From: Minisyncoccota bacterium
Lineage (GTDB): Bacteria; Patescibacteriota; Microgenomatia; UBA1400; PJMF01
Reading direction: 5' to 3'
DNA: 64,000 bases
NCBI GenBank assembly: GCA_009991965.1
Contig: JAACWQ010000002.1
Coordinates: forward strand, 81,617-145,616
Positions 344 to 47,849 of the stretch are shown here, piece after piece. The position numbers and the translations under genes are program-made. Position 1 is the first letter of the stretch. Each line of letters starts with the position of its first letter. Below the pieces are notes generated by a model that saw only the letters and a list, made by a program, of their open reading frames with translations, was not told the DNA's origin and made no database searches.

Positions 344-1336
344 TTGTTAGCTACTGCAGGTGCTGAAATTCCCAATGACTACGATCTCCTCAGGCAAGGT
401 GCTGAATGGCTTGCTGATTTTTTGGATAAACTTATCCAAGATGCGGCTGAGTTTGCGCATCCTATTCTTGAAATAATTTTGTTGGCAATTGCAAATCTTA
501 AAACAGAATTAGTGCAGCTATGTGCTCTGTGTGAGCAAGGTACAACTTTGATTGCAGAACAATCAGTAACGAAACCACTTGCAGAGGAAGTATTAGAATT
601 TGTTGTTGAATTGGCGACTAGTGAGTCAGAACACCAGAAGCTTTCTACAATTTTGTCTGCAATTACTGACGATTTTTTTGCTGATAATTCTGATTTATCA
701 AGTTATCCCGATGAATATGCGGCTGTGCTTGAAGATGCACTCAACGAAATGACTGTTTTTCGTCTCATGTCTGGTATGGTAGCTGCACCCGGATCTCGCC
801 ATGCAGGGACCAATCCAACTTTTCATACTGCGCAAGTTGCGTGTGAGTGGCTGAAGACTGCAGCTACGAGGTTTGGTCAGGCGAGTTCTCCAGAACAAAA
901 GAATCAATTTAGAGCAGAATTATTGGCAGTGATTGACCATGACGCTGGGAAGTTGCTTAACCCAAAATTCGACGCACATCACAAACTTTCACTACAATTA
1001 GCTGGTCCTGGTATTAAATATGTGGCAACTGACAAAGGATTTGCCGAAAAAATTTCGCTCACTAATTTCTTGGTACACAATCATGATATTTGTGGACATA
1101 TAGCGGCAAAGCGACGAAATTATCAAGATATACTGGCAGCGTTTAAAAAGGAACCAAACATAGCCGACTACATGCGCTCACTCTACTATATACAATTTGC
1201 AGACATGCAGGCTATTACCACGATGCCCCAAGAACACAAAAGCGAAAATATTTCTATTTGGACAAAGCTTTGTGTAGATTTGCAGTTAGATGAGCTCGTG
1301 ACTGAAATTGTGATAAACTCTCCTAGAATATCGTGA
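344..1336 (+). CDS. hypothetical protein
   Basis: 330-aa ORF with TTG start. Stop codon overlaps the glyA start region. No recognisable motif. Confidence 0.5.
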   Translation: MLATAGAEIPNDYDLLRQGAEWLADFLDKLIQDAAEFAHPILEIILLAIANLKTELVQLCALCEQGTTLIAEQSVTKPLAEEVLEFVVELATSESEHQKLSTILSAITDDFFADNSDLSSYPDEYAAVLEDALNEMTVFRLMSGMVAAPGSRHAGTNPTFHTAQVACEWLKTAATRFGQASSPEQKNQFRAELLAVIDHDAGKLLNPKFDAHHKLSLQLAGPGIKYVATDKGFAEKISLTNFLVHNHDICGHIAAKRRNYQDILAAFKKEPNIADYMRSLYYIQFADMQAITTMPQEHKSENISIWTKLCVDLQLDELVTEIVINSPRIS

Positions 1337-2661
1337 AAGGAAGCAGCGTGCCAGATAAAATTTTTTCTCTCGTCGCCAAAGAACTAAAACGCCAAAAAGA
1401 AATGATCGGTTTAATTCCATCTGAGAATACCGTTTCGCCGGCAGTTTCCAAGGTTTTAAGTTCTTGTTTGTCCAATAAATATTCCGAAGGGTATGCGCTA
1501 CGCAGATACTACGAGGGCAATCAGATTATTGATGAAATTGAGTTACTAGCTATTGAGCGAATTAAAAAGCTATTTGGCGTCCCGTACGTCAATGTCCAGC
1601 CATATTCTGGTAGTCCCGCCAACTGGGCAATTTACTTTTCGCTGATGCAACCGGGCGATACCTTGATGGGGTTGAAATTGTCGATGGGCGGGCATTTGAC
1701 ACACGGTCATCCAGACGTAACTGCTTCGGGGCGGTTTTATAACTCCGTGCAGTATGGCGTAAAAAAAGACGCGCGGATTGATTTTGCCGAAGTAGAACAA
1801 CTGGCCAAAAAACACAAACCAAAGGTGATTGTTGCTGGCAATACAGCCTATCCGTTTGAACTTGATTTCAAAAAATTTCGCGCAATAGCAGACAAAGTAG
1901 GCGCTTGGTTAGTTGCTGATATATCGCACATTACGGGTTTGGTTATTGCTGGTGAGCACATGTCTCCCGTACCGTATGCCGATGTGATTATGACCACTAC
2001 CCACAAGACATTTCGTGGGCCAAGAGGGGCGATGATTTTGGTGACGCAGCGTGGGCTTGATAGAGATCCAGATTTGGGTAAACGGATGAACGCGGCGATT
2101 ATTCCTGGTACGCAGGGCGGACCGCATAATGCGACGACAGCTGGCATAGCCATCGCTGCTGCCGAAGCGAGCACAGCCAAATTTCGCGCCTACGGCAAAC
2201 AAATTCGTAAAAATGCGACAGCCTTGGCGACAGAACTTTTGCAGCAAGATATTGATCTGGTCGGAGGTGGCACAGAAACACATCTCATGGTTATCGATCT
2301 GACCAAATTTGGTATCGGGCTGGGTACGCAGGTGGCGTTTGCACTTGATGTGGCTGGTATTTATGCCAATCGCAACACGATCCCGACAGAGCAGGGCTCG
2401 CCGTTTTATCCCTCTGGCTTGCGTCTGGGTACGCCGCTGGTGACTTCGCGCGGTATGAAAGAAAAAGAAATGAAGCAAATCGCAAAGTGGATTGCGCTGG
2501 TTGCCAAACACGTGAGCGAGCAGCAGCTGCCGACAGATAGGAAAGAACGTGCTGTCTTTTTGAAGAAATTTCGCAAAAATGCCCTCAAAGATCCGGTCCT
2601 CAAGAACATTCGCAAAGAAGTAAAAATGATGACGGCAAAATTCCCGCTGTTTCAGTTATAG
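1333..2661 (+). CDS. glyA: serine hydroxymethyltransferase
   Basis: Matches SHMT N-terminal region (LIPSENTVSPAV...KYSEGY) and PLP-lysine region (TTTHKTFRGPRGAMIL). Alternative GTG start at 1348 preceded by AAGGAAG. Confidence 0.9.
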   Translation: MKGSSVPDKIFSLVAKELKRQKEMIGLIPSENTVSPAVSKVLSSCLSNKYSEGYALRRYYEGNQIIDEIELLAIERIKKLFGVPYVNVQPYSGSPANWAIYFSLMQPGDTLMGLKLSMGGHLTHGHPDVTASGRFYNSVQYGVKKDARIDFAEVEQLAKKHKPKVIVAGNTAYPFELDFKKFRAIADKVGAWLVADISHITGLVIAGEHMSPVPYADVIMTTTHKTFRGPRGAMILVTQRGLDRDPDLGKRMNAAIIPGTQGGPHNATTAGIAIAAAEASTAKFRAYGKQIRKNATALATELLQQDIDLVGGGTETHLMVIDLTKFGIGLGTQVAFALDVAGIYANRNTIPTEQGSPFYPSGLRLGTPLVTSRGMKEKEMKQIAKWIALVAKHVSEQQLPTDRKERAVFLKKFRKNALKDPVLKNIRKEVKMMTAKFPLFQL

Positions 2662-2667
2662 AGAACT

Positions 2668-3309
2668 ATGAAAATTCAAAAGTTTGATTTACTTGTTTCA
2701 CTCTACGTATTTTGTATTATGGTGGCTGAGCTAATGGGTGGCAAAACGATTCCGCTCCTTAAAGTCGGCTCGATAAATTTGAGCGCAAGCGTGGCAATTT
2801 TTGTTATACCGCTGTTGTTTACTATCAACGACGTCATTACCGAAGTGTATGGTCCCGAGCGAACGCGTAGCGTGATTCGCTCTGGTTTGTTGATGATTTT
2901 CTTGGTGCTGTTGGCGAGTTTGTTTTTCACCTGGTTGCCTCCCTCTGGGCGCTTTGCAGCTTCTGAGTCTGCATACGATACAATCTTTGGTCTGTCAGCC
3001 CGGATCACTGCCGCAAGTTTGACAGCCTTCGCTTTGGCTGAATTTCTAGATGTAGCAGTGTTTGTTCGACTCAAAAAGAAAATGGGCAAAAAAGCTTTGT
3101 GGTTTCGCAATAACGTCTCGAACTTTGCCGCCCAATTCGTTGATACCGTCGTGTTCATGACGCTCGCTTTTTATGCCTTTGGTACGCCAGTCGGGGAGAA
3201 CGTATCATTTTTGGTAGGACTGATTTTGCCGTATTGGCTGTTAAAGTGTGCGTTATCTGTAATTGAAACGCCGCTTGTGTATCTGGGTATTCGTTGGCTC
3301 AAAAAGTGA
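2668..3309 (+). CDS. queuosine-precursor transporter family membrane protein (YhhQ/DUF165-like)
   Basis: 213-aa polytopic membrane protein. Resembles the YhhQ preQ0/preQ1 transporter family (FLDVAVFVRLKK..WFRNNVSNFAAQFVDTVVF). Confidence 0.55.
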   Translation: MKIQKFDLLVSLYVFCIMVAELMGGKTIPLLKVGSINLSASVAIFVIPLLFTINDVITEVYGPERTRSVIRSGLLMIFLVLLASLFFTWLPPSGRFAASESAYDTIFGLSARITAASLTAFALAEFLDVAVFVRLKKKMGKKALWFRNNVSNFAAQFVDTVVFMTLAFYAFGTPVGENVSFLVGLILPYWLLKCALSVIETPLVYLGIRWLKK

Positions 3310-3833
3310 ACATAACGCTTGCGATGGTGTTATCTGCAGATGGCAGGACGACCAAGGGTGACGACCCGAATATTTACACTTGGACATCTCAAGAAGATCA
3401 GGATCATTTTTTTTCTTTTATCGCTCAAAATAATTTGATTATCATGGGCCGGAAAACCTATTTTGCTGCAGCTGACAAGATTCGATTGTCTCCAGAGAGA
3501 AAGCGAGTCGTCTTGACGAAAAACCCAGAGTTGTACATAGATCTTGCGGTAGAAGGGCAACTCGACTTCAGTAGTGAGCAGCCAGCGGAATTGGTCCGTC
3601 GCCTAACAGCGGAAGGCTACACCACTGCATTACTCGTTGGTGGTGGGACGGTAAATTGGCATTTTTTACAGTCCGGTCTGATCAACGAGTTACTCCTGAC
3701 TATTGAACCGCAGATTTTTGGTGCAGGGCAGAGTCTCTTTGCTGGTCCGATTAATTCTCTAAAGCTCGAGCTTTTGGAACAAAAACAACTCAATGATCAA
3801 GGCACGATGCTGATGCGATATAAGGTACACTAA
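3294..3833 (+). CDS. dihydrofolate reductase family protein (RibD C-terminal domain-like)
   Basis: 179 aa. Motifs ITLAMVLSADGRTT, IMGRKTY and LLVGGG are typical of the RibD_C/DHFR family. Overlaps the previous gene. Confidence 0.55.
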   Translation: MAQKVNITLAMVLSADGRTTKGDDPNIYTWTSQEDQDHFFSFIAQNNLIIMGRKTYFAAADKIRLSPERKRVVLTKNPELYIDLAVEGQLDFSSEQPAELVRRLTAEGYTTALLVGGGTVNWHFLQSGLINELLLTIEPQIFGAGQSLFAGPINSLKLELLEQKQLNDQGTMLMRYKVH

Positions 3834-3859
3834 ACGTAAATTATTGTGAGAAAGTTTGT

Positions 3860-4744
3860 ATGACCAGAAACTTAGGCGCCCACGTTTCAGCTGCTGGCGG
3901 CATAGACAAAGCGGTAGAGCGCGTAGCAGCGATAGGTGGTAATTGCTTACAACTTTTTTCGGGTAGTCCGCGGGTTTGGGCAAAACCAGGATTGGACAAA
4001 TACCCCTTGGTCAAATTCTTCTCAAATTTGGAAAAATACGCTATAGCACCAGTCTTTACGCACGCTCTCTATTTGGTCAATTTGGCCTCCGATAAACCAG
4101 ACAACCTTCGGAAATCTTTCGACTGTCTGAAATACGAACTGGAGTTTGATAGCTTGGTTAAAGGTTCGGGTGTGATTGTACATTTGGGTAGCCACCAGGG
4201 ACGCGGTTGGGCGGCAAGTAGCGAGCAGATCGCAGAGCAGATCAACTTGCTTTTGGCTGCTACGCCGGATGATTCAACTTTTCTGATTGAAAATTCTGCA
4301 GGGCAGAAGGGAAAAATCGCAAGCGATTTACATGAAGTTCGTTGGTTACTTGACCAGGCAGAAATTGCTGGCAAGTGGGTGAGTAAAGGTCGATTGGGTT
4401 GGTGTTTCGACACCTGCCATGCACATGCTGCAGGCAACAAACTGGGAGATCCGACAAAGATTGGGAGCGGAGAAAAATCTGCACTGGCTACACTCGATGA
4501 ACTAGATTTATGGTCTACGCTCCGCCTGGTGCACGTCAACGACAGCAAAGATCCATTTGCCAGTGGGCGAGACCGTCATGCCAACATCGGTGATGGCACT
4601 ATTCCGCCAGCAGATTTGCAGTTTTTTCTCGATACGAAGCAGGTGCAGAAATTGTCACTGATTCTTGAGGTACCAGGGATTGATGGCAAGGGGCCGGATG
4701 CGGAAAATATTGAGCGGGCTAAGAAGTTGCTTGATGCTTGCTAG
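3860..4744 (+). CDS. nfo: endonuclease IV (AP endonuclease, family 2)
   Basis: N-terminus LGAHVSAAGG...GGNCLQLF. Metal-binding His and Asp residues (HAHAAGN, VHVNDS) are typical of Nfo. Confidence 0.85.
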   Translation: MTRNLGAHVSAAGGIDKAVERVAAIGGNCLQLFSGSPRVWAKPGLDKYPLVKFFSNLEKYAIAPVFTHALYLVNLASDKPDNLRKSFDCLKYELEFDSLVKGSGVIVHLGSHQGRGWAASSEQIAEQINLLLAATPDDSTFLIENSAGQKGKIASDLHEVRWLLDQAEIAGKWVSKGRLGWCFDTCHAHAAGNKLGDPTKIGSGEKSALATLDELDLWSTLRLVHVNDSKDPFASGRDRHANIGDGTIPPADLQFFLDTKQVQKLSLILEVPGIDGKGPDAENIERAKKLLDAC

Positions 4745-4994
4745 ATTCTTCTAGTTGAGCAAAAATTTGAGCAATTTGTTCTGCTGAAGCATTAAAAAAA
4801 ATTATTTTTGAAAAACCAGGGAAAGGGTTGAGCACCAGCATTGTGCAGTCTGAAAATAAATCTGGCTCTTTTCGTTGTAAGCCTTTTAATTGAACAGCAG
4901 CTTCGTTGGTTACAAGTCTTTCACTATTTAGTCCCATAATGTATTTTACCACGACTAAGCAACCTGCACTTGCTTTTCCTTATTACTTTTGCAT

Positions 4995-5160
4995 ATAGTG
5001 TCTTTGCTGTGGAACACGGTGAGAATCCGTGACTGTGCCGCAACGGTGTTTGGGTTTACCCAAAAGTCCGATCTTCAGCACACTACAATCTGACGCGCAT
5101 CGGGAATTTTCAATAAAGTAGTGTGAGCCTCCACAGCGGTATAAAGTACGTAGCTGTCTG
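4995..5160 (+). promoter_or_regulatory. candidate cobalamin (B12) riboswitch in 5' leader
   Basis: 425-nt non-coding leader. The segment GGAACACGGTGAGAATCCGTGACTGTGCCGCAACGGTG resembles the cobalamin-riboswitch core (compare E. coli btuB leader AGTGCGAATCTGGAGCTGACGCGCAGCGGTAA). Long-range pairing GCTGTGG / CCACAGC. Downstream operon encodes a DUF4430 protein. Confidence 0.4.
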
Positions 5161-5184
5161 TAACATCAGGTGGTAAGGAGGTGT

Positions 5185-5883
5185 ATGGTAGAAATAATTT
5201 CAAGTAAAGTGAGATATGAGGGCTGGTATGGCGATTTGCCTGAAATTGCTGCAGCTCAGAGTCTAAGTGAGTTGGGCTTATTTGCTCGACAACTTGGTGC
5301 AGAGTTGTATGGCTTTACTGGAGAGGCCTCTCAGCAAATGAGAACGTTATTTGTGGGATTGCCGCATGGAGTTTTGGAGGTTTGGGGACAATTGTTAGAA
5401 ACACAAGCTGCAGGAGCGCTGCGGCAAAAATTTGGCAAGCCAAAAGAGGAACTGGTAGGTGCACAATTTGTAGCAGCAGAGTTGACAGATCGGGCAGAGG
5501 GAGCGGCTGGCAAACTTACTGAGCTTCGGAGTGATCTATTGGCAAAGTATGAGCAATTTCAACAAATTTTGATGCAACAGCTCGCAGTAAAATTGGCGGA
5601 GCTTGCCGCAGTGCAAGAACGGATACAAGCCAATAAAACTGCGTTACACACTACTGAAGAGCCAAGGCATATTTTGGCAAAAGTAGAGTATAAAGCAGCA
5701 AAAGATACCGGCACAGAAGTTGTCAGTCGGGATCAGGTACATTTACTACAAATACAAAAAGAAATTACCGTACTGCAGGAAGCATTAGGGTCATTTTTTG
5801 CCCCTTTGGGAGTTGTATTGCAAGAAGTCAGGCAAATGATGACAGTGGCTCCACTAGATGCAAACAAAGCGGTGCCCGTGTAG
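5185..5883 (+). CDS. hypothetical coiled-coil protein
   Basis: ATG at 5185 with AAGGAGG 6 nt upstream. The ORF track started at an upstream GTG. Helical, charged protein with no recognised domain. Confidence 0.5.
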   Translation: MVEIISSKVRYEGWYGDLPEIAAAQSLSELGLFARQLGAELYGFTGEASQQMRTLFVGLPHGVLEVWGQLLETQAAGALRQKFGKPKEELVGAQFVAAELTDRAEGAAGKLTELRSDLLAKYEQFQQILMQQLAVKLAELAAVQERIQANKTALHTTEEPRHILAKVEYKAAKDTGTEVVSRDQVHLLQIQKEITVLQEALGSFFAPLGVVLQEVRQMMTVAPLDANKAVPV

Positions 5884-5907
5884 TTGCCTGCTACAATAGA
5901 CCTTCCT

Positions 5908-6285
5908 ATGAAACAAAAGCTTCCTATATATCTTGCACTCGCTATCGGTCTGATTGGTGCAGTAGTGTTTTTTAACAAAAATGCTCGCCTACAGCAAATT
6001 CCCGAGAAGGTGATGGAAACAACTATTTCACTTTCCTTTGCAGCTATGACAGACGGCCAAACTGCTCTTGATCTGCTCAAGGAATCTGCCCAAGTGGAGT
6101 ACCAAGAATTTGATTTTGGCGTGATGGTAACCAGCATCAATGGTGTCGCAGCAGACGAAAAGCACTACTGGGGGTTGTATGTGAATGATGAGTACGCGAC
6201 CGCAGGCGCGAGTGAGACGGTGCTCAAAACGGGTGATACGATGAAGTGGATTTATGAAGAAATTTCTGATTCACCAGTTCAATAA
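5908..6285 (+). CDS. DUF4430 domain protein (transcobalamin-like, putative cobalamin-binding), membrane anchored
   Basis: N-terminal TM or signal anchor. C-terminal HYWGLYVNDEYATAGASETVLKTGDTMKWIY resembles the DUF4430 fold. Confidence 0.55.
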   Translation: MKQKLPIYLALAIGLIGAVVFFNKNARLQQIPEKVMETTISLSFAAMTDGQTALDLLKESAQVEYQEFDFGVMVTSINGVAADEKHYWGLYVNDEYATAGASETVLKTGDTMKWIYEEISDSPVQ

Positions 6286-6763
6286 AAACGCCATTCCTGC
6301 AATGACCGCCATGGTGGTTTTTGCTACACGTGGTGGGATCTTGCCACCAAATGTCAGTCCACTCGGTGCCTCTGGATTTACGACCAAAAAGTTCATCTGG
6401 TTTTTTCTCGGAATTGTAGCTTTTGATTTTTTGCGTGGGGGTTTTTACCCAGGAGTTCTATTAACGTATCTCGGCTTTGCCGCCTATCCGCTTTCGGGTT
6501 GCCTGGCGGGCAACTCACTGCGTAGACAAGCGGTATTCTTGCCACTGGCCTCACTCTTATTTTTCCTGTTATCAAATCTCGGCGTCTGGTGGTTTTGGTA
6601 TCCCCAGACCTGGGCAGGGCTAGTTTTGTGTTACACCATGGCGCTGCCGTTTTATCGCAACACGTTTTTGTCTGACCTTGGTTTTTTTGCGGTTATCGCG
6701 GGCATTCGCCACGTTAGTATTGCAGTGCAAAAATGTAGGACAAAGGAATTGGCTATTGTATGA
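6254..6763 (+). CDS. small polytopic membrane protein (possible vitamin-uptake S-component-like)
   Basis: 169 aa with 5-6 predicted TM helices. Overlaps the DUF4430 gene. Function inferred from context only. Confidence 0.45.
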   Translation: MKKFLIHQFNKNAIPAMTAMVVFATRGGILPPNVSPLGASGFTTKKFIWFFLGIVAFDFLRGGFYPGVLLTYLGFAAYPLSGCLAGNSLRRQAVFLPLASLLFFLLSNLGVWWFWYPQTWAGLVLCYTMALPFYRNTFLSDLGFFAVIAGIRHVSIAVQKCRTKELAIV

Positions 6764-7614
6764 CAATTATTTTTGACGGTTTCAAAACAGCGCGGGCGAG
6801 AGAAGTGAAGCTCGAACAGGATATTATTGCAGCCAACCTTTTGCAGCCGATTACTATTCAAGCAATTGTGTTCACCGAAGACGAAGGTAGTATGTTGTAC
6901 ACCAGGCTCAAGGCGGAAGCAGCTGAGCGGGTAGGGATTGTGTACCAAGCAACGCAATTTTCTTTGGCAGACCCAAGAGAAGTAGTTTTGGAGGCAGTTC
7001 GTGCGGCTAATCTAGATCAAGCGATTACTGGTTTGATTATTCAAAAACCGAGTCGAGCGGTGTACGAAGCTGTTGGCAAACTGCCGTATTCGCAGTGGTG
7101 GCTAGAGCTGGTATCTGCGATTGCGCAGAATAAAGATGTCGATGGCTTGCATCCAGAGACGCTTAAGGCTGGCAACATTTTGCCAGCAACTTGTCGAGCA
7201 GTGTTGGCTATTTTAGTCGAGGCGTTGGGTGGTTCGCCAGAAAATGTACAGCATCAGGGCAAAAAAATTAGCATCATTGGCCGATCAGATTTGTTGGGTA
7301 AACCATTAGCACAGGAGCTACTTCGCCAGGGGGCGAATGTCGAATTGCTCGGCAAAAAAGATTTGGCAGAGCGCCAAGTTTCAGGTGAATATTTACTTAA
7401 CTCGGACGTGGTAATTTCTGCAACCGGTGTGGCAAATTTGATTACTCCAGATATGGTTAGCGAAGGAGTGATTACAATCGACGTGGGCGAGCCGCAACCA
7501 GATATTTCCAGAGCGGTAGCAATGAAGGCGAGTTTTTTTACGCCGGTTCCTGGTGGAGTGGGGCCGATGACGGTAGTATCACTTTTGGAAAACGGGTTTC
7601 GACTGACTCATTGA
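6760..7614 (+). CDS. folD: methylenetetrahydrofolate dehydrogenase/cyclohydrolase
   Basis: Start IFDGFKTAREV resembles the FolD start I.DGK. C-terminal Rossmann segment GKKISIIGRSDLLGKPL and GVGPMTV. Confidence 0.7.
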   Translation: MTIIFDGFKTARAREVKLEQDIIAANLLQPITIQAIVFTEDEGSMLYTRLKAEAAERVGIVYQATQFSLADPREVVLEAVRAANLDQAITGLIIQKPSRAVYEAVGKLPYSQWWLELVSAIAQNKDVDGLHPETLKAGNILPATCRAVLAILVEALGGSPENVQHQGKKISIIGRSDLLGKPLAQELLRQGANVELLGKKDLAERQVSGEYLLNSDVVISATGVANLITPDMVSEGVITIDVGEPQPDISRAVAMKASFFTPVPGGVGPMTVVSLLENGFRLTH

Positions 7615-7871
7615 CGCTTATCTCTCATTATGATAATCTTATCATTATGTTGCAAACGACAATTACTCCCAATTTTCAAGTTCATATTCCCGTTACGATC
7701 CGAAAGCAGTCTGGCATAACACAACACGGAACTGCCATTATTAGTGCTCAGAAGGGGAAAATTATTATTGAAGCAAAGCCTAGCGGTTTTCTTGCTCTGG
7801 GCAGTTCATTCCAAGTCAAGAAGCCGATTAAAGTAGAACAGATTCGAGATCATATAGAGTATTCGAGATGA
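7611..7871 (+). CDS. AbrB/MazE-type antitoxin (VapB-like)
   Basis: Small ORF immediately upstream of, and overlapping, the PIN gene. Swapped-hairpin-like VHIPVTIRKQSGI...GKIIIE. True start may be ATG at 7647. Confidence 0.5.
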   Translation: MTLISHYDNLIIMLQTTITPNFQVHIPVTIRKQSGITQHGTAIISAQKGKIIIEAKPSGFLALGSSFQVKKPIKVEQIRDHIEYSR

Positions 7872-8290
7872 CCACTAAGGCGTTCATCGACACGAGTGTA
7901 TTTATTCGTTTTTTGACAAACGACGATTCAGAAAAGTTTCAAGAATGTCTTGAGTTTTTTGAAGTAGTTGAGTCAGGAAAAATTCGTCCATATACTTCTC
8001 AAGTGGTCATTTTAGAGATTGTTTTTGTTCTCAACAGATTGTATTCATTCCCAAAGAAAAAAGTTCTACTGGCAATTAGTCAGATATATAACATCAGAAA
8101 TATTACAGTAATTGAGACAACAAAAACCACTCAAGCCCTGGCTTTATACTCCAAGCACCCAATTAAGTATCCAGATTGTCTTATAGCAACGCAGCTGCCA
8201 CCAAGATGTACTTTGCTCACATACGATAATGAGTTTAAAAAGATTACAAAAATAGCAGCTCAAACTCCAGGCGAGTTACTACTCCGTTGA
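7868..8290 (+). CDS. vapC: PIN-domain ribonuclease toxin (VapC-like)
   Basis: N-terminal AFIDTSVFIRFL carries the conserved Asp of PIN domains. 140 aa. 4-nt overlap with the upstream antitoxin. Confidence 0.7.
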   Translation: MTTKAFIDTSVFIRFLTNDDSEKFQECLEFFEVVESGKIRPYTSQVVILEIVFVLNRLYSFPKKKVLLAISQIYNIRNITVIETTKTTQALALYSKHPIKYPDCLIATQLPPRCTLLTYDNEFKKITKIAAQTPGELLLR

Positions 8291-8319
8291 GTTTATGGTG
8301 GTATATACTACCCCTGTCC

Positions 8320-9705
8320 ATGACCGAGTCCACAGCGCTCCTGGCGCTTTCACCACTCGACGGTCGGTACTACCTACAAACTCGGGAACTCTCGGGGTAC
8401 TTTTCAGAATTTTCGCTCATCCGCTACCGTGTGCGGGTTGAGGTTGCATATCTTATTGCTTTGCTTGAAACCACCAAAGCGTTCGTTTTGTCGCCAAAGC
8501 AAATTTCAGAGTTGCAACAAATGGCCGATTCGTTTTCCATCGCAGATGCAGAAGCAGTCAAAGTCCACGAAGCAAAATGTCACCATGACGTCAAAGCAGT
8601 CGAGTATTTTTTGCGCGACAAATGCAGCAAGCTTGCTCTGGCTAAGGTATTTCCCTACATTCATTTTGGCTTGACTAGTGAGGATGCAAACTCTGTTGCA
8701 TACGGTTTAGCTCTCAAGGAGAGTAGGAACAAAGTCATTTTGCCAGCCCTGTTACAGATTGTAGATTCACTGGCACATTTTGTGCAGGCAAACGCGGAAG
8801 TTCCGATGCTCGCACGCACCCACGGCCAGCCAGCTGTACCAACAACTTTGGGCAAAGAGTACGCAGTTTTTTTGTCCCGGCTTGTACCTGAGATTGATGC
8901 TGTGCGCACGGCGCAATTTGTTGCTAAAGTATCGGGCGCAGTGGGTACATATAGTGCGCAAAGTTTGGTATTTCCAGAGGTAAATTGGATAACATTCTCA
9001 AACGAATTTTTAGCGAAGCTTGGCTTAACTGCGGATCCACTCAGTACGCAAGTAGTTTCTGCAGAAAGTTACACGCGCTATTTCCAATCGCTCTCACGGA
9101 TCAACAGTATCTTGCTCGATTGCGCGCGCGACTCTTGGCAATATATTGCTGATGGTTGGTTGGTGCAAATTTCAAAATCATCCGATGTTGGATCATCGAC
9201 CATGCCACAGAAGGTCAATCCAATCGATTTTGAGAATGCAGAGGGGAATTTTGGGTTGGCAAATGCTTTACTTTCACACTTGAGCGAAAAATTACCCATT
9301 TCCCGTCTGCAACGCGACCTGTCAGATAGCACGCTTAAGCGTTCATTTGGAACCGCACTTGGCCACACGATACTTGGGATTAAGTCGCTGACCCGTGGTT
9401 TGAGCAAAGTTTCGCCAAATCCTGACACCATGAGCCAAGCGCTGTCTGCCCACCCAGAAATACTTTCTGAAGGCTTACAAACACTTTTGCGCGCTGATGG
9501 AGTAGGGGACGCATATGAAATTTTCAAAGAAGCAACTCGAGGAAAAAATAATCTTTCGCTCGATCAACTGAAAGTAATTGCAACAAAACACGCCAAAACG
9601 AAGACCACTAAGCAGAAGATTGCCTCGCTCACACTAGAGTCCTATACTGGGCTGGCCGCCCAACTTGCACAACAGAAAGGATTTTATGCCACCACGACCG
9701 CGTAG
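8320..9705 (+). CDS. purB: adenylosuccinate lyase
   Basis: LSPLDGRY near the N-terminus. Fumarate-lyase signature region GSSTMPQKVNP. Confidence 0.85.
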   Translation: MTESTALLALSPLDGRYYLQTRELSGYFSEFSLIRYRVRVEVAYLIALLETTKAFVLSPKQISELQQMADSFSIADAEAVKVHEAKCHHDVKAVEYFLRDKCSKLALAKVFPYIHFGLTSEDANSVAYGLALKESRNKVILPALLQIVDSLAHFVQANAEVPMLARTHGQPAVPTTLGKEYAVFLSRLVPEIDAVRTAQFVAKVSGAVGTYSAQSLVFPEVNWITFSNEFLAKLGLTADPLSTQVVSAESYTRYFQSLSRINSILLDCARDSWQYIADGWLVQISKSSDVGSSTMPQKVNPIDFENAEGNFGLANALLSHLSEKLPISRLQRDLSDSTLKRSFGTALGHTILGIKSLTRGLSKVSPNPDTMSQALSAHPEILSEGLQTLLRADGVGDAYEIFKEATRGKNNLSLDQLKVIATKHAKTKTTKQKIASLTLESYTGLAAQLAQQKGFYATTTA

Positions 9706-11035
9706 TTTTGCATTTTGCGGAGGAGCTTACGGAGATGAGGGCAAGGGTCGCCTGGTTGATCAGTACGTCAGCGACTACGCCAAGCAAGGTCCAGTTGTCG
9801 TGTATAGAGACAACGGCGGTTCCAACGCGGGTCACACTGTTGCATTCGACAATACGAAAGTTGCCTTGCACCAACTACTTTCTGGCACTTTTATAAAAGG
9901 CGTAACGACGATTCTTGGTAAAGGCATGGTCTTACATCCCGGCGACTTACTCGAGGAAATTGCAACAGTTAAAGCAGCCACGGGCGGAACAGTTCCTGCC
10001 AAAATCCTGATTGACGAGATGGCGGTAGTTTTGCTCGACACGCACCGGGCCTATGAGGCGGTGCTGCAAGATTTTCAAACGGGTAACCGCGGTACCACTG
10101 GGCGGGGAATTTCACCAGCTTACGTAGATGTATTGTTGCGACACCCGATCCGTATGCGCGATCTAAAACCGTTTAACAAAGAAAAAATTACCAAACATTA
10201 TCGTCTATACCAGGCTATGTGCGCGGGGTTAGGGCAGAAGTTGGCAGAAAAGGAAGTGCTGACGCTGGCTGGTCCCAAGCAAGTTATCGGTAGTGAGGCT
10301 GCATTTCTCAAACGCGTGCAAGCGCAAGCAGCCGAGTTGGAGCAATTTATCTCAGGTGTTTTTGATGTGTTGCAGCGTGCTTGGACAGACAAAAAAACAG
10401 CTTGTGTGTTTGAAAAAGGCCAAGGAATCGGACTCGATGTGCGTTGGGGCGTGTACCCTGATTTCACTGCGTCCGAGACGACCTTTTCAGGTATTTTTTC
10501 CTCAACTGAAGGGATAGTTAATCCCAGAGATATCGAGATCCGAGCAGGTGTGATTAAAGCAACTTACATGTCGAGCGTCGGTATTCGCAAGTTGCCAAGC
10601 GCCATGGACGAAGCATTGGCACACCAAATCCGCGAAGATGCTGACGAGTACGGTGCAACCACCAAGCGGCCGCGTGACGTCGTACACATCGATATTCCCT
10701 CGCTGTCTTTTTTCGCCAAAGTGGGCGACGTTACCCATTTAGTCGCTACACATATGGATATCGTTTACAAAGATACACCAATTAAAGTTTGTGTTTCATA
10801 TACAAAAAATGGTAAAACCGTGCCGTATCGACCAGATCAAAAATATCTCAACACAGTTAAGCCAGTGTTCAAGCAGTTCGCTCCTTGGGATGTGGTTGCA
10901 CTGCGCAAAGCCAAGACTCGCGCGGAGTTGCCAGTAGCGGCGCGAAAGTACATAGCATTTTTAGAAAAAGCCATCGGTGTGCCAATGCTGATGATCACAA
11001 CGGGACCAAAGCGGGAAGAGGGGATTTTGCTGTAG
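9665..11035 (+). CDS. purA: adenylosuccinate synthetase
   Basis: GDEGKGR P-loop. GNAGHTV and TTKRPRD motifs. Start could be ATG at 9686. Confidence 0.9.
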   Translation: MHNRKDFMPPRPRSFAFCGGAYGDEGKGRLVDQYVSDYAKQGPVVVYRDNGGSNAGHTVAFDNTKVALHQLLSGTFIKGVTTILGKGMVLHPGDLLEEIATVKAATGGTVPAKILIDEMAVVLLDTHRAYEAVLQDFQTGNRGTTGRGISPAYVDVLLRHPIRMRDLKPFNKEKITKHYRLYQAMCAGLGQKLAEKEVLTLAGPKQVIGSEAAFLKRVQAQAAELEQFISGVFDVLQRAWTDKKTACVFEKGQGIGLDVRWGVYPDFTASETTFSGIFSSTEGIVNPRDIEIRAGVIKATYMSSVGIRKLPSAMDEALAHQIREDADEYGATTKRPRDVVHIDIPSLSFFAKVGDVTHLVATHMDIVYKDTPIKVCVSYTKNGKTVPYRPDQKYLNTVKPVFKQFAPWDVVALRKAKTRAELPVAARKYIAFLEKAIGVPMLMITTGPKREEGILL

Positions 11036-32487: not shown

Positions 32488-34350
32488 TTACCTATTTGTG
32501 TCAAACACCTCTATGAAACTTATAATATCTTGTGAATCAATTGTACATGTTCCAGCTAAATTATAGTCACAAAAATCTGTACCAAATTTGCCGAATAGTA
32601 GATTGTAATCAAAAATGTCTACTTTGCCGCTGCGGTCAAAATCTCCAGATATTTGTTGGGTACTAGCACAATTAGTCTCAGATTCCCCAACCGCTGTGCA
32701 AGCAATTATTGGTTGTCCCAAACCTTGGCTGTTTGCTCGCTGCCAAGTTACATCGAGTAAATCTGGTCTACTCCCCGCTTGCTGCACATAACTCCAACAA
32801 AAACCTTCGTTGCAGATTGTGCTGGTATTGTTAACATCATTTGTCCACCCGACGGTCGGTCCATTATTTGCAGTGATGCTGACACCAGTGTCGCCAGGAG
32901 CAATTTTAAAGAGGTCGGTGATATCAAATGGTCTGCCTTTTCCGGCATCATCTTGGTTGTGCCAGCGCATTTCATTGTAATTAAACACCCAGCACCACTT
33001 GGTATTGCAAAAATATTCACGACTATTTACCTTGTCTGTCCAGGCAGCAGAAATACCTGCGCCAGAGAAAAGTGTGGTGCCATCACTTGCGGCGACTGTG
33101 TCTTTCCAATATTGTTGTGTGCTCAAATCAATTCCTTGGCCATTATTTGCCCAGCCACCAGTACCCCAGAGCCACATAAATTTGTTGTTGGTCAGAGACA
33201 CCAAATTGTTTTTGTAATCTTCCCAGCCGGCTTTTGGTCCGCCATTTTTCCAGAGTGATTGCGATTCGGTAGTTTGAACATTACTGCCAAATGCAGCTCT
33301 TAAATCAATAGGATTGCCGCTATTTTCTATGAGGCCCGTTGCAAAATTGCTTCTCCAACACCAGGCGCCATTACAGATTGTTGCAATGTGTGAAGTGGGA
33401 TCGGTCCATGCTGTAGTCGGTCCAAGTCTGTTCTGTTGGGCATTTTTTGTCCACGGGAGTGTGTCGTCGCTGGCTGCTACAAATTTGACCGTTGTACTGG
33501 GTGGAGTTGGCTCTGGCGGAGTCGTTTCTTCTGGAAATATATTTGCCAAAATTTTTGTTGCAAGATTGTCCGAAATGAAATTAATTGACCCTTCCTTAGT
33601 TAGTTCCCACTTACCCTGTTCTCTTGATTTATTTTGCACGATGGTTTCTCTGTCAACGGCGTCGAATGCAGCCACCATGCCGTTTTGTTCGTTATTTGCT
33701 ATGCCTTCTGCATTGACCAGTCCGTAGTCAAAATACACGCCAATCAGGTCGGGCGCGTCGGCTGCCTCTACCCCATATGTTGGGGACGCAGGAGTGACGC
33801 TGCTCAGCAAAGTTCCGTTTGGTGCGTAGAACTCAATTTTGCTGATGCCAAAATCTCGATCAGTTACGGGAGTTGTATTTGGATTCCAGTAGTCATTGAA
33901 AAAGACATAGGATAGCTTGGTTATAAAACGGTCGCTCGTGTTTTGATCAGGTTGCATAAGTAGCTTGCCCACGGAAACTTGTGTTTCCAATACCTGTGTT
34001 GTTGCTGTTGGACAAAAGTAATTGCCGCAATCGCCTGGTTGCATTTTGTCGTTGTACAAGTTGGGAGTACCACAACCAGTTCCAGCGGAAGCACAGCTGC
34101 CATAGTCATAGGGACCGTCAAAATTTGTTCCATTGTTTATATACAAGGCAAATTTTGGCCAATTAGAACTATCTCTAGTATCGAGTCCGGCTTTTGCAGT
34201 GACATGTGTTTTGATAGTAATGGGAACATCTGCGATTGCGGTAATTGCGTTTAAGTCAATTGCCTCAACCGAGAGTGAGGTGTTGCTGAGTTGGTTTGCG
34301 AGTCCAAAAAGACTCAGGGCACACAAAAAGATAAAAGCTACCCTAGACAT
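32488..34350 (-). CDS. large secreted protein with Cys-Trp repeat modules and C-terminal dockerin-like module
   Basis: Signal peptide. Three repeats of the type TICN.G.CW (ICNEGFCWSY, ICNGAWCWRS, FCNTKWCWVF). C-terminal DFDRSGKVDIFDYNLLFGKF is dockerin-like. Confidence 0.45.
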   Translation of the reverse strand: MSRVAFIFLCALSLFGLANQLSNTSLSVEAIDLNAITAIADVPITIKTHVTAKAGLDTRDSSNWPKFALYINNGTNFDGPYDYGSCASAGTGCGTPNLYNDKMQPGDCGNYFCPTATTQVLETQVSVGKLLMQPDQNTSDRFITKLSYVFFNDYWNPNTTPVTDRDFGISKIEFYAPNGTLLSSVTPASPTYGVEAADAPDLIGVYFDYGLVNAEGIANNEQNGMVAAFDAVDRETIVQNKSREQGKWELTKEGSINFISDNLATKILANIFPEETTPPEPTPPSTTVKFVAASDDTLPWTKNAQQNRLGPTTAWTDPTSHIATICNGAWCWRSNFATGLIENSGNPIDLRAAFGSNVQTTESQSLWKNGGPKAGWEDYKNNLVSLTNNKFMWLWGTGGWANNGQGIDLSTQQYWKDTVAASDGTTLFSGAGISAAWTDKVNSREYFCNTKWCWVFNYNEMRWHNQDDAGKGRPFDITDLFKIAPGDTGVSITANNGPTVGWTNDVNNTSTICNEGFCWSYVQQAGSRPDLLDVTWQRANSQGLGQPIIACTAVGESETNCASTQQISGDFDRSGKVDIFDYNLLFGKFGTDFCDYNLAGTCTIDSQDIISFIEVFDTNR

Positions 34351-45605: not shown

Positions 45606-47849
45606 ATGAACCTTTCGTATCTTTTTTTCCTTTTTCCTCTCGGTCTTCTTTTTGCTGCTGTGTACGGAATGTTTGTCGCAGTTCAGTTTGTACGAAGGAG
45701 ATTTGGTTGGTTGCCCGAGCCAACCGTACAAGCGGGCGAAATTGTAAAAGAGCAAAATCCATTTATCTTGCCTGGATCGTTCGGATTGGCGGTGTTGTTT
45801 TTACTCGCAGGCTATAACATTGGGCTTTACGATGCCTTCCCTGCTCAGAAGTTACCAGCTGTTGGTCTAGCCATTTTTCAATTTTTCGTAGGCATCACGT
45901 GGTTGGTGCTTTTTTCGAAGCGAAAGATTTCACTTGCAGTCTGGACCTTGGTGTTCACGTCTGTCTTGAGCGGAGTTCTACTCGTTGTTCGAGCCAACGG
46001 TTTTGTGCAGTCATTTAATGGTGCAATTTGGATAATCAGCACACTTGGATTATTTGCAATTTTTGTGCGCACGCACACGCGTTGGAGTTTCTTGAGTTTG
46101 CTCCAGACTTTGCTCCAAATGATTCCCGCTGGATTTTTGCAGGGTCTACTGATGATCGGCAGTATTTTTCGCTCCAGAGAAAATAAACGCTCTGCTGTGT
46201 TCGGTTGGATAAAAACTGCCGGTATCGCAATTGTGGTGTTTCTCTTTTTTGTGGGCATTCTTTCGCAAAGTGACCCGGTTTTCAACGAAATGGTCAAGGG
46301 GTTCCGAGAGCAACTCTTTGGTCGGACGCTGCAATCTGCAGTACTCTTGATGGTTGCGGCTGCGACACTTTCAATTGTGCTACCGAATCAGTCGGAGGAG
46401 CCATGGCGGCTGCGTTTTCTCTCGTATCGAGACTCTCTTGCAGTACTCGTTACGACGCTCTCAGTCGTTGGTTTGTTTTTGTTTGTGCAGTTTCGCTATC
46501 TCTTCGGTGGCTCCCGTGAGCTATTGGTGACTCTAGACCTCACCTTTAGCGAGTATGTCCGCAAAGGTTTCATCGAGCTGTTGATTGCAACGTTTGCTGG
46601 TGGTGTTTTGGTATATCTCATGACGCTTAAGCAGCGAGTGCTAGAGCATGGGCAATCAGTTGCCGTTAAACTGGCAAGTTCTGCCTTGGTGATTGAGCTT
46701 TTTCTCCTCCTTGGTTCGGCCCTCAAGCGAGATTTGCTCTATGTCGAGACGTATGGTTTGACCAGAGTACGTGTCGTCGGTGGTTTGTTTTTGATCTGGC
46801 TCGCAGGATTATTATTGTCCCTGCTCTTCTTTGTTTTGTGGAAGCGGATGAAAGAGCTTAATTTACTGCGTGCAGTTTGGGGTTTATCGTTATTTGTTTG
46901 GTTGGCACTCAACATCCTTAACGTCGATCGTATTGTGGCGCAAGGCAGTCCAGAACATCACGAATATACCGATTACTACTATATTGCGAATTTGTCCGAA
47001 GACGCTGCTAGTGAGTGGCCCGCAATGATTACTGATATCGACACAAGTGTAAATAGACTACTTGCGAAAGATTCACTGACTGACATAGAACAGGCACAAC
47101 TCGCTGGTCTAAAGCTCTCGCTCGTTGCGGTCATGGAGCGTCGAGAGCGACTGTATATGCATCATGCGAGCGCCGATTGGGTGCTCGAGAATCATGAATC
47201 ACTACACGTAAGTGATATCTATTACTTGGCTGTCCGCACAGAACTTCCAAAGGAGCTGCGGATTGCTCGAGGCTGGAGGTTTTATAATAGCTCCGAAGCC
47301 AATGCGGTACAAATTTTGAGGGAAAATGAGTCGCTCTTCTTTGAAACTGTCGATACTGATTTCAGGCGTATCCAGGTCTATCAAATCAAACACGGCGTTG
47401 ATTTGCGCAAGCACGAGGACCGCTTACTGCATGAGTTTGCTTATCCGTTTATCGATATCAACATGCGTTACTCTTCTCAAGAGTTGAGTGACAGTGCATA
47501 TGCCTATAGCTCAGGACAAATGACCGATGATGAAAAAGGTCTTTTGGCTGCGTTGGAGTTGAGTCAGGCCAACACTGTAGGCACCCTGCAAACGGTACAG
47601 TGTGGCGACGTGATTGCTTTAGAAAAACCAATTGTGGTGTACGGAAAATTTAAAGATATGACATCGCTGCAATCACTAAGCGATGCAAATGAACAGTTGT
47701 CGGTCAACGTGGAGCGCTTAATCCAAATGGATAGGCCAATGCGAATCGTCTTAGTGCCAAGCGTCATAAATATAGGTGATAGTTGTAGGGTGCAGTTTCG
47801 CGTAGAGTCAGCCGAAACATTTAAATCATTACTCAATGGCAGATATTAG
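45606..47849 (+). CDS. large polytopic membrane protein with about 300-aa C-terminal soluble domain, unknown function
   Basis: 747 aa. More than 10 TM helices in the first ~430 aa. 14-nt overlap with the next gene. Confidence 0.55.
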   Translation: MNLSYLFFLFPLGLLFAAVYGMFVAVQFVRRRFGWLPEPTVQAGEIVKEQNPFILPGSFGLAVLFLLAGYNIGLYDAFPAQKLPAVGLAIFQFFVGITWLVLFSKRKISLAVWTLVFTSVLSGVLLVVRANGFVQSFNGAIWIISTLGLFAIFVRTHTRWSFLSLLQTLLQMIPAGFLQGLLMIGSIFRSRENKRSAVFGWIKTAGIAIVVFLFFVGILSQSDPVFNEMVKGFREQLFGRTLQSAVLLMVAAATLSIVLPNQSEEPWRLRFLSYRDSLAVLVTTLSVVGLFLFVQFRYLFGGSRELLVTLDLTFSEYVRKGFIELLIATFAGGVLVYLMTLKQRVLEHGQSVAVKLASSALVIELFLLLGSALKRDLLYVETYGLTRVRVVGGLFLIWLAGLLLSLLFFVLWKRMKELNLLRAVWGLSLFVWLALNILNVDRIVAQGSPEHHEYTDYYYIANLSEDAASEWPAMITDIDTSVNRLLAKDSLTDIEQAQLAGLKLSLVAVMERRERLYMHHASADWVLENHESLHVSDIYYLAVRTELPKELRIARGWRFYNSSEANAVQILRENESLFFETVDTDFRRIQVYQIKHGVDLRKHEDRLLHEFAYPFIDINMRYSSQELSDSAYAYSSGQMTDDEKGLLAALELSQANTVGTLQTVQCGDVIALEKPIVVYGKFKDMTSLQSLSDANEQLSVNVERLIQMDRPMRIVLVPSVINIGDSCRVQFRVESAETFKSLLNGRY

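Follow-up and report, generated by a model that had tools for sequence, protein, structure and literature searches.

Cobalamin (vitamin B12) riboswitches include that of Escherichia coli btuB, which represses by occluding the ribosome-binding site (RBS). On the protein side, BtuM of Thiobacillus denitrificans is a solitary S-component-like B12 transporter in which the invariant Cys80 of loop 3 ligates cobalt (PMC6072759), and ECF-CbrT of Lactobacillus delbrueckii is encoded in an nrdJ-cbrS-cbrT-pduO cluster (PMC5997447). Extracellular binders are represented by the transcobalamin-type carriers, which carry the domain DUF4430 at their C terminus (PMC4350170), and by BtuG, BtuH and BtuJ of Bacteroides, surface B12 binders of riboswitch-controlled uptake operons (PMC13616437, PMC8941943, PMC13398666). 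A split transcobalamin-like pair, Lsa1839/Lsa1840 of Lactobacillus sakei, has been proposed for haem uptake (bioRxiv 10.1101/864751). Here, we analysed a 64-kb stretch of DNA from a Candidatus Pacebacteria member of the Patescibacteria, or candidate phyla radiation (CPR), which we call the window and to which all coordinates refer unless a locus is named. On its + strand, an RNA leader precedes an open reading frame of 232 amino acids (aa), ORF1 (5185-5883), a gene for a DUF4430 protein (5908-6285) and a gene for a DUF6580 membrane protein (6254-6763). Our reading, to which we give a probability of roughly 75%, is that the leader contains a compact adenosylcobalamin (AdoCbl)-type riboswitch (RF01482), a translational OFF switch that controls ORF1 together with a two-part B12 acquisition module, DUF4430/DUF6580, in Patescibacteria/CPR. 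We infer that the leader would bind its ligand, that the membrane-anchored extracellular DUF4430 protein would bind and capture B12, and that the DUF6580 protein would move the vitamin across the membrane. The riboswitch itself is of a known kind, and its cargo is probably a new B12-uptake module.

The whole window was scanned on both strands with cmscan against Rfam 15 (4227 families), the Infernal scan proposed in an earlier note that had suggested a cobalamin riboswitch here from the sequence alone. RF01482, the AdoCbl riboswitch aptamer of clan CL00101, matched at 4985-5108 (+) over its full length (model positions 1-149), at a score of 55.1 bits (gathering score 50) and an E-value of 2.2e-07; the only other gathering-level matches in the window were RNase P RNA and two tRNAs. 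Together with the conservation of the leader in relatives and the strong covariation of its subclass, this match bears out the suggestion of the earlier note, whose 38-nt core string was located at 5011-5048. With RF01482 the window leader shares P1, the GGUGAGAAUCC hairpin, P5, a briefly extended P6, and P13. In the cmscan alignment, all on the + strand, the P3/4 hairpin (GGUGAGAAUCC) lies at 5015-5019/5027-5031 with the loop UGAGAAU, P5 at 5034-5036/5040-5042, P6 at 5044-5046/5068-5070, the P6-extension hairpin at 5052-5054/5059-5061, and the P13 hairpin (CUGA/UCGG, loop CGCGCA) at 5090-5103. The B12 box had been described as not cleanly matching the consensus, and the mismatch is real, CCACUG...CAGG of RF01482 being replaced by CAACGG...CCGA, but it represents a compensatory change in P6, from the consensus CUG/CAG to CGG/CCG. 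In cobalamin riboswitches generally, the L5 kissing loop usually has P13 as its partner. The loop of P13, L13, reads CGAGCA in 55 of 77 subclass members and CGCGCA in the clade of the window, with L5 constant, and only a 3-bp GCA:UGC pairing, without covariation, can be proposed between the two loops. A hairpin at 5035-5049, the sole terminator-like site of a consensus promoter and terminator scan, lies within the aptamer and was discarded as a terminator.

Leaders from six related loci (L081, L083, L085, L086, L088 and L089) were aligned with that of the window. Across these seven leaders the aptamer and the segment downstream of it are nearly invariant, and the flanks diverge freely; the genes behind the leaders diverge to 60% identity for DUF6580 and to 19% for ORF1 (range 19-49%). 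The P6-extension hairpin varies from GGG:CCC to GGC:GCC, and the core is otherwise too conserved within the clade for a covariation test, yielding 2 covarying pairs. A covariance model built from the seven leaders, R1, matched 8 related loci at 130-155 bits. Of the six close homologues, just two reach the gathering level of RF01482, L085 (55.2 bits) and, in a local match, L089 (50.1 bits). The RF01482 cut-off sits at the very edge of this riboswitch subclass, which is probably under-annotated, given the high scores of the clade model for homologues that Rfam misses.

To cover the wider subclass, metagenome contigs were scanned for TGGAAN{15,24}CCGCAACGGTN{14,34}AGTCCGATC, which returned at least 119 stretches, and R1 was used to align 76 metagenome loci among the matches listed together with the window, comprising 73 distinct sequences. 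In this alignment, which was fitted to R1 and for which the search pattern had fixed P5 and P6, leaving them uninformative for covariation, standard pairs occupied 94.1% of cells compared with 71.4% in shuffles (73 sequences; a value reached by 0 of 500 shuffles). For covariation, the score was 0.489, against 0.139 in shuffles (again 0 of 500 as high) and at most 0.086 in slid controls. Changes on both sides of the pair were found for all five pairs of P1, four of five in the P3/4 hairpin, all three of the P6 extension and all four of P13, and the P1 pairs were formed in 95.4% across the 73 distinct sequences.

The + strand intergenic gap before ORF1 measures 440 nt (4745-5184), where a leader of 425 nt had been described, but promoter-like boxes predict a leader RNA of about 180 nt. 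These boxes are a -35-like TTGCTT (4970-4975, +) and, after an 18-nt spacer, a -10-like TATAGT (4994-4999, +). In all seven leaders the arrangement TTGC(NN)-N18/19-TAT(A/G)(G/T)T stops 4-5 nt short of TTGCTGTGG amid diverging sequence; the consensus scan called no + strand promoter, and the -35 box is weak. The pattern points to an RNA 5' end near 5005. Because of this predicted start, positions 4985-5004 of the Rfam alignment are probably promoter DNA, and the true P1 would be formed by UGCUG (5005-5009, +) and CAGCA (5076-5080, +), the latter invariant in the seven leaders and overlapping CACACUAC (5079-5086); the transcribed aptamer probably spans 5005-5103. Rfam also aligned an outer P1 extension (4996-5001/5080-5085), which we rejected as RNA structure, since it coincides with the -10 box and its pairing is not conserved. 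Compared with known cobalamin riboswitches, the aptamer of the window begins at, or a few nucleotides from, the predicted RNA 5' end.

Leaders were folded from the predicted RNA start to 18 nt beyond the start codon, and the structures described below are thermodynamic predictions. The switching segment, GUAGUGUG-AG-CCUCCACAGCG (5118-5138, +), is invariant in all seven leaders. It includes UCCACAGCG (5130-5138, +), which pairs with UGCUGUGGA (5005-5013) in the ON fold, so that the P1 5' strand is engaged with 5134-5138 there and with 5076-5080 in the ligand-bound fold. It also includes the anti-Shine-Dalgarno (anti-SD) sequence GCCUCC (5127-5132, +), which pairs with GGAGGU (5177-5182) in the OFF fold; the Shine-Dalgarno (SD) sequence GGAGG occupies 5177-5181 (+), and the ATG start of ORF1 follows at 5185-5187. 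The ON helix UGCUGUGGA:UCCACAGCG is present in the minimum-energy fold of six of the seven leaders, the window included, and a helix CACACUAC:GUAGUGUG (5079-5086/5118-5125) in that of the window and most relatives. The complementary strings GCTGTGG (5006-5012) and CCACAGC (5131-5137), which the earlier note had taken for the enclosing helix of the aptamer, belong instead to this competing ON-state helix, the enclosing role falling to P1. Since the ON helix draws on the P1 5' strand and on the conserved core UGGA, it is incompatible with the aptamer; it also ties up part of the anti-SD sequence. Forcing the four P1 pairs GCUG:CAGC alone was followed by the GCCUCC:GGAGGU helix in every leader. 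In the window, the probability that the SD sequence is unpaired went from 0.33-0.74 with the ON helix forced to 0.00 with P1 forced; across the leaders, it was 0.00-0.28 with P1 forced. The computed ON-to-OFF cost is 0.9 kcal/mol for the window and 2.2-9.1 kcal/mol for the relatives, a cost that ligand binding could plausibly pay. Just 5' of the RBS, a further hairpin, GCUGUCUG/CAGGUGGU (5153-5174, +), is kept in all seven leaders by seven differing sequence pairs (e.g., CUGUUUGC/GCAAACAG and UUUGUCCGA/UCGGGCGAG).

These folds suggest that the leader would act as a translational OFF switch of standard design. Without B12, the RNA 5' end (UGCUGUGGA) would pair with UCCACAGCG, part of the anti-SD sequence would be held, and the RBS of ORF1 would remain accessible. 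With B12, P1 would form and GCCUCC would be freed to pair with GGAGGU, and initiation at 5185 would be blocked. RBS occlusion of the E. coli btuB type is likewise predicted for the window leader, and relatives add an intrinsic terminator; compared with known cobalamin riboswitches, the predicted ON state of the window uses the P1 5' strand and the core UGGA as an anti-anti-SD sequence. The terminator, CUCCCG-loop-GGGAG followed by U6-7, lies between P13 and the switching segment in five of the seven leaders (L081, L083, L086, L088 and L089). The window (about 5108-5118) and its closest relative, L085, are without this segment of 29-31 nt, which in L081 can be compared at 3763-3800. As the terminator is present in the outgroup L088, a loss is the simplest account of its absence from the window, and the lineage of the window seems to have moved from dual (transcriptional and translational) to translation-only control. 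In the relatives the terminator would add transcriptional control; a candidate antiterminator, in which CGGGA on the 3' side of P13 pairs with UCCCG, is weak, and both computed states retain the terminator. In these terminator-bearing relatives, B12 would also shut off the downstream genes folD, purB and purA unless internal promoters exist.

The second gene of the locus encodes a protein of 125 aa that matches PF14478 at 56.9 bits (gathering cut-off 23.8) and has an N-terminal hydrophobic anchor, MKQKLPIYLALAIGLIGAVVFF, in agreement with the membrane-anchored DUF4430 protein that had been predicted. Its proposed affinity to transcobalamin and intrinsic factor was likewise recovered: a profile built from 24 DUF4430 proteins of these loci and searched against the PDB matched haptocorrin, intrinsic factor and transcobalamin in their beta domains, with values of 9.2e-05 for haptocorrin 4kki (residues 348-430), 0.02 for 3kq4 and 2pmv, 0.027 for 3u7z and 0.049 for 5no0. 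The region matched in intrinsic factor is 305-364, and 5no0 is the isolated transcobalamin beta domain. All 10 PDB matches are cobalamin carriers or the bacterial DUF4430 structure 3u7z, and nothing unrelated was retrieved. DUF4430 lies directly upstream of DUF6580 in 23 loci, namely L001-L021 (all 21 Patescibacteria loci), L034 and L080. In 41 of the 76 metagenome loci among the matches listed, DUF4430 is also the gene that comes first behind the riboswitch subclass, and 6 of these 41 have DUF6580 further downstream as well.

In the metagenome loci, the gene after DUF4430 often encodes 630-780 aa, and 50 downstream proteins were scanned, of which 16 match SQHop_cyclase_C and 10 match Pfam Cobalamin_bind. 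The order riboswitch, DUF4430, SQHop_cyclase_C/Cobalamin_bind protein of about 700 aa, and small protein is seen in L125 (3809-7236), L159, L147, L105, L152, L114, L148, L129, L141 and L158. The large protein is an alpha/alpha toroid resembling the alpha domain of transcobalamin, so that the alpha and beta parts of a transcobalamin-like binder seem to be encoded separately in such loci, under B12 control, a split of the kind proposed for Lsa1839/Lsa1840. The DUF4430 protein of the window, predicted to be exported or anchored outside the cell as transcobalamin, intrinsic factor and haptocorrin are, is a candidate extracellular B12-binding protein. Unlike the transcobalamin-type carriers, the window has the beta-like protein only, without an alpha-domain partner, ORF1 being unrelated to the alpha-like proteins.

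The third gene had been described as a small polytopic membrane protein that could be the translocation unit, and it proved to encode a DUF6580 protein of 169 aa (PF20221, 75.8 bits; gathering cut-off 27), a family of which we found no mention in the literature searched. All 99 homologues retrieved, mostly from Patescibacteria, carry PF20221, and a single peptide pattern recovered at least 565 confirmed relatives from a one-genome-per-species collection. An AlphaFold2 model based on 43 sequences (predicted local distance difference test, pLDDT, 88.4) has an S-component-like fold of about six membrane helices and lies closest to BtuM and the S-components of energy-coupling factor (ECF) transporters, consistent with the proposed role. 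In a Foldseek search against the PDB, BtuM with cyanocobalamin and with hydroxycobalamin (8c7p, 8ovv) ranked first and third, with probabilities of 0.99 and 0.98, template modelling (TM) scores of 0.59-0.64 and 20-22% identity; FolT, ThiT, CbiM and other S-components came next, and the E-values were weak (0.14-0.43).

Gene neighbourhoods of DUF6580 outside the close clade were collected for the 60 best loci, mainly from Bacteroidota with some from Saccharibacteria and other lineages, and 31 of them have a cobalamin-clan riboswitch within 3 kb. In a metagenome-assembled genome (MAG) of Bacteroidales (L048, 191-6442), a riboswitch is followed by DUF6580, a Por_Secre_tail protein and a DUF4465 protein, the latter domain being a BtuJ-type B12 binder (PMC13616437, PMC13398666). 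The order is riboswitch, unknown gene, DUF6580 and TonB-dependent receptor in L073, and DUF6580, riboswitch and TonB-dependent receptor in L045. Two cobalamin riboswitches occur within 6.5 kb of L048, the other one preceding nrdD, a B12-independent anaerobic reductase. In two Saccharibacteria MAGs, an RTPR-like AdoCbl-dependent ribonucleotide reductase adjoins the DUF4430-DUF6580 pair, lying 12 nt upstream in L018 (534-3525; TIGR02505 3e-81) and convergently downstream in L034 (2570-6349; TIGR02505 2e-86), both below the equivalog cut-off; no riboswitch was detected in these two loci.

ORF1 had been described as a coiled-coil protein; it now stands as an orphan helical protein, one that the riboswitch subclass targets directly and repeatedly. 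Its sequence is 100% identical to protein COU68_03390 of a Candidatus Pacebacteria MAG. It has no signal peptide or membrane segment and no Pfam or NCBIfam match. Its family numbers about 12-13 relatives among 1.84 billion representatives in an exhaustive search, and 2-4 by word search. The AlphaFold2 model is poor (pLDDT 56.6), predicting an all-helical protein at low confidence, and the Foldseek matches were generic helical bundles (AhlC, HlyD; E >0.1) that are meaningless at this model confidence. Kinship with transcobalamin-alpha-like proteins was ruled out (hhalign probability 0.2%). A clade hidden Markov model (HMM) detected ORF1 homologues in a further 13 metagenome loci among the matches listed, each as the gene that comes first behind the same riboswitch subclass. 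Judged from these sequences, ORF1 is a putative B12-regulated protein in its own right.

Taken together, riboswitch control in the clade, the riboswitch, BtuB and BtuJ neighbourhoods in Bacteroidota, the adjacency to AdoCbl-dependent reductases in Saccharibacteria, the BtuM-like fold of DUF6580 and the beta-domain homology of DUF4430 argue that DUF4430 and DUF6580 form an uncharacterised B12 capture-and-import module. We lean, with some reserve, towards the further view that this module is an undescribed two-component B12 route, in which B12 captured by a membrane-anchored, transcobalamin-beta-like binder passes to a solitary carrier with an S-component fold. DUF6580 would then be a new, widespread transporter family whose partner is DUF4430 in Patescibacteria and BtuB in Bacteroidota, and ORF1 a third, orphan B12-regulated family in ultrasmall bacteria. 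BtuM and DUF6580 are both polytopic membrane proteins of about 170-190 aa with an S-component fold, and in Gram-negative lineages DUF6580 neighbours btuB-like receptors under the control of cobalamin riboswitches, the very setting through which BtuM came to notice. The two differ in belonging to separate Pfam families, and in Patescibacteria DUF6580 is paired with a DUF4430 binder, whereas BtuM has none. We describe DUF6580 as BtuM-like in its putative working, not as a member of the BtuM family. CbrT offers a second parallel, as an S-component-fold protein of a bacterium without an outer membrane whose gene lies beside that of an AdoCbl-dependent reductase, as in the Saccharibacteria locus L018; unlike DUF6580, it needs an EcfAA'T module, and none was seen in the 64-kb window, where the ABC ATPase signature motif [LIVFY]SGG[QEM] is absent from every ORF of at least 80 aa. 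BtuG, BtuH and BtuJ resemble the DUF4430 protein in representing accessory extracellular B12 capture under a riboswitch, and DUF4465 shares an operon with DUF6580 in L048; in contrast, their folds are unrelated to DUF4430 and they feed the outer-membrane BtuB. Patescibacteria are not known to have an outer membrane.

The genes from ORF1 through purA all lie on the + strand, with overlapping stop and start codons at nearly every junction. Behind DUF6580 follow folD (6760-7614, 284 aa, Pfam THF_DHG_CYH domains), two small ORFs forming a MazE-like/PIN pair (7611-8290), purB (8287-9705, 472 aa) and purA (9665-11035, 456 aa). The start of folD overlaps the stop of DUF6580 (ATGA), and this overlap and the gene order are the same in all relatives; folD is probably on the same transcript as DUF6580 and is outside the B12 function. 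Contigs with close DUF6580 homologues (60-93% identity) have in common the order apurinic/apyrimidinic (AP) endonuclease, variable minus-strand gene, gap of about 250 nt, ORF1 (218-240 aa), DUF4430, DUF6580, folD, purB, purA. Some relatives have, between ORF1 and DUF4430 and thus inside the riboswitch-controlled operon, an extra gene of 573-684 aa with a weak Glyco_hydro_cc match (L083 2633-4354, L086 5544-7583, L089 4864-6669), which the window does not have. The toxin-antitoxin pair (MazE-like match weak, E 0.006) separates folD from purB, and stop and start codons overlap here too; in L081, L083 and L086, purB follows folD directly.

The riboswitch operon of the window is embedded in a folate, one-carbon and purine cluster (1333-4744 and 6760-11035). 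Its upstream part comprises serine hydroxymethyltransferase (SHMT; 1333-2661), a Vut_1 vitamin-uptake-type transporter (2668-3309), a 179-aa ORF (3294-3833) assigned by position only, where L088 has a DHFR_1/RibD_C gene, and an AP endonuclease gene; relatives add folP and folK. A 77-aa ORF without a family (4719-4952, -) occupies the site of the Peptidase_S8 gene of relatives and was ruled out as a remnant of it, showing no similarity to that gene. Elsewhere in the window, the class A RNase P RNA (55857-56145, +) spans 289 nt against a model of 367 positions, scores 103.4 bits against a cut-off of 100, and is aligned without two model segments of 43 and 24 positions. Two large ORFs are unrelated to the B12 locus, one of 620 aa without a Pfam family (32488-34350, -) and one encoding a DUF4153 protein of 747 aa (45606-47849, +).

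Several of our observations weigh against a riboswitch-controlled B12 module. Among PDB sequences, no sequence link between DUF6580 and BtuM was found at E-values up to 10, either with the single sequence or with the 43-sequence profile. The single near-invariant cysteine of DUF6580, C126 (42 of 43 sequences, in WYPHT..GL..CY..ALPFY), lies at a different sequence position from the essential Cys80 of BtuM (PMC6072759), which has no obvious counterpart; C83 of the window protein is not conserved. A scan of 10 large ORFs of the 64-kb window revealed no B12-dependent enzyme, and the B12-binding motif DxHxxG is absent from every window ORF of at least 80 aa. The remaining points on this side bear on specific alternatives and are weighed with them.

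The alternative that survives best, which we nevertheless consider unlikely, is that the riboswitch is real but gates ORF1 only in the window, DUF4430, DUF6580 and folD-purB-purA being independent of B12 and two modules merely juxtaposed. The window is without the terminator of L081, L083, L086, L088 and L089, so that only ORF1, whose RBS alone is sequestered, would have its translation directly gated. Riboswitch-ORF1 units also stand alone elsewhere, as expected if the modules were independent neighbours: in three loci inspected (L137, L142 and L127), unrelated housekeeping genes lie behind them. Most Patescibacteria DUF4430-DUF6580 pairs (L003-L021), moreover, have no detectable riboswitch within 3 kb. 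With Rfam and R1, none was found within 3 kb of DUF6580 in L001-L020, where the contig of L001 ends before the leader and the flank of L002 is too short; a longer stretch of the L002 contig (L086) does carry the riboswitch. Against this separation, the ORF1-DUF4430 gap is only 24 nt and holds no SD motif, and the stop codon of ORF1 is directly followed by an alternative TTG start at 5884, features that favour translational coupling, through which B12 control may extend from ORF1 to DUF4430 and DUF6580. The order riboswitch-ORF1-(GH-like)-DUF4430-DUF6580 is, furthermore, kept across the clade, most members of which have a terminator that would gate the whole transcript, and DUF4430 is the gene found first behind the same riboswitch subclass in over half of the metagenome loci among the matches listed.

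It is considerably less probable that the riboswitch is real and the membrane module carries folate, haem or another tetrapyrrole, the need for which changes with B12 status. Such a substrate would suit the folate, one-carbon and purine genes that surround the locus (SHMT, the DHFR-like gene and folD, which overlaps DUF6580), the presence of FolT and ThiT among the fold matches, and the haem uptake proposed for the Lactobacillus sakei pair (bioRxiv 10.1101/864751). The top fold matches, however, are BtuM with cobalamin bound, and the DUF4430 profile retrieves only cobalamin carriers and one bacterial DUF4430 structure. DUF6580 of Bacteroidota, in addition, occurs with BtuB-like receptors and a DUF4465 binder behind cobalamin riboswitches, that of Saccharibacteria lies beside an AdoCbl-dependent reductase, and other downstream partners match Cobalamin_bind. 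That the Rfam match arose by chance and the leader is no riboswitch is scarcely credible: the match exceeds the gathering score by a mere 5.1 bits, it draws some of its score from 4985-5004, a stretch that is probably not transcribed, and four of the six close homologues (L081, L083, L086 and L088) fall below the cut-off, but an E-value of 2e-07 for the whole window, a core that is invariant amid diverged flanks, the covariation of four helices over 73 sequences, a conserved two-state platform and the B12-related genes downstream, DUF4430 foremost, effectively refute it.

Patescibacteria/CPR are believed to depend on other cells and to have minimal biosynthesis of their own. For these organisms, the locus described here is a concrete candidate for B12 acquisition, with a DUF4430 binder and a DUF6580 carrier under a riboswitch of a known kind. 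The RF01482 cut-off misses most members of what is a common riboswitch subclass. ORF1 represents an orphan family whose sole known property, as predicted from the leader folds, would be repression in the presence of B12. In many B12-dependent bacteria, no protein has yet been assigned to the passage of B12 across the inner membrane (PMC6072759), and if our reading is true, DUF6580 would fill this gap beside BtuB in many marine and gut Bacteroidota.

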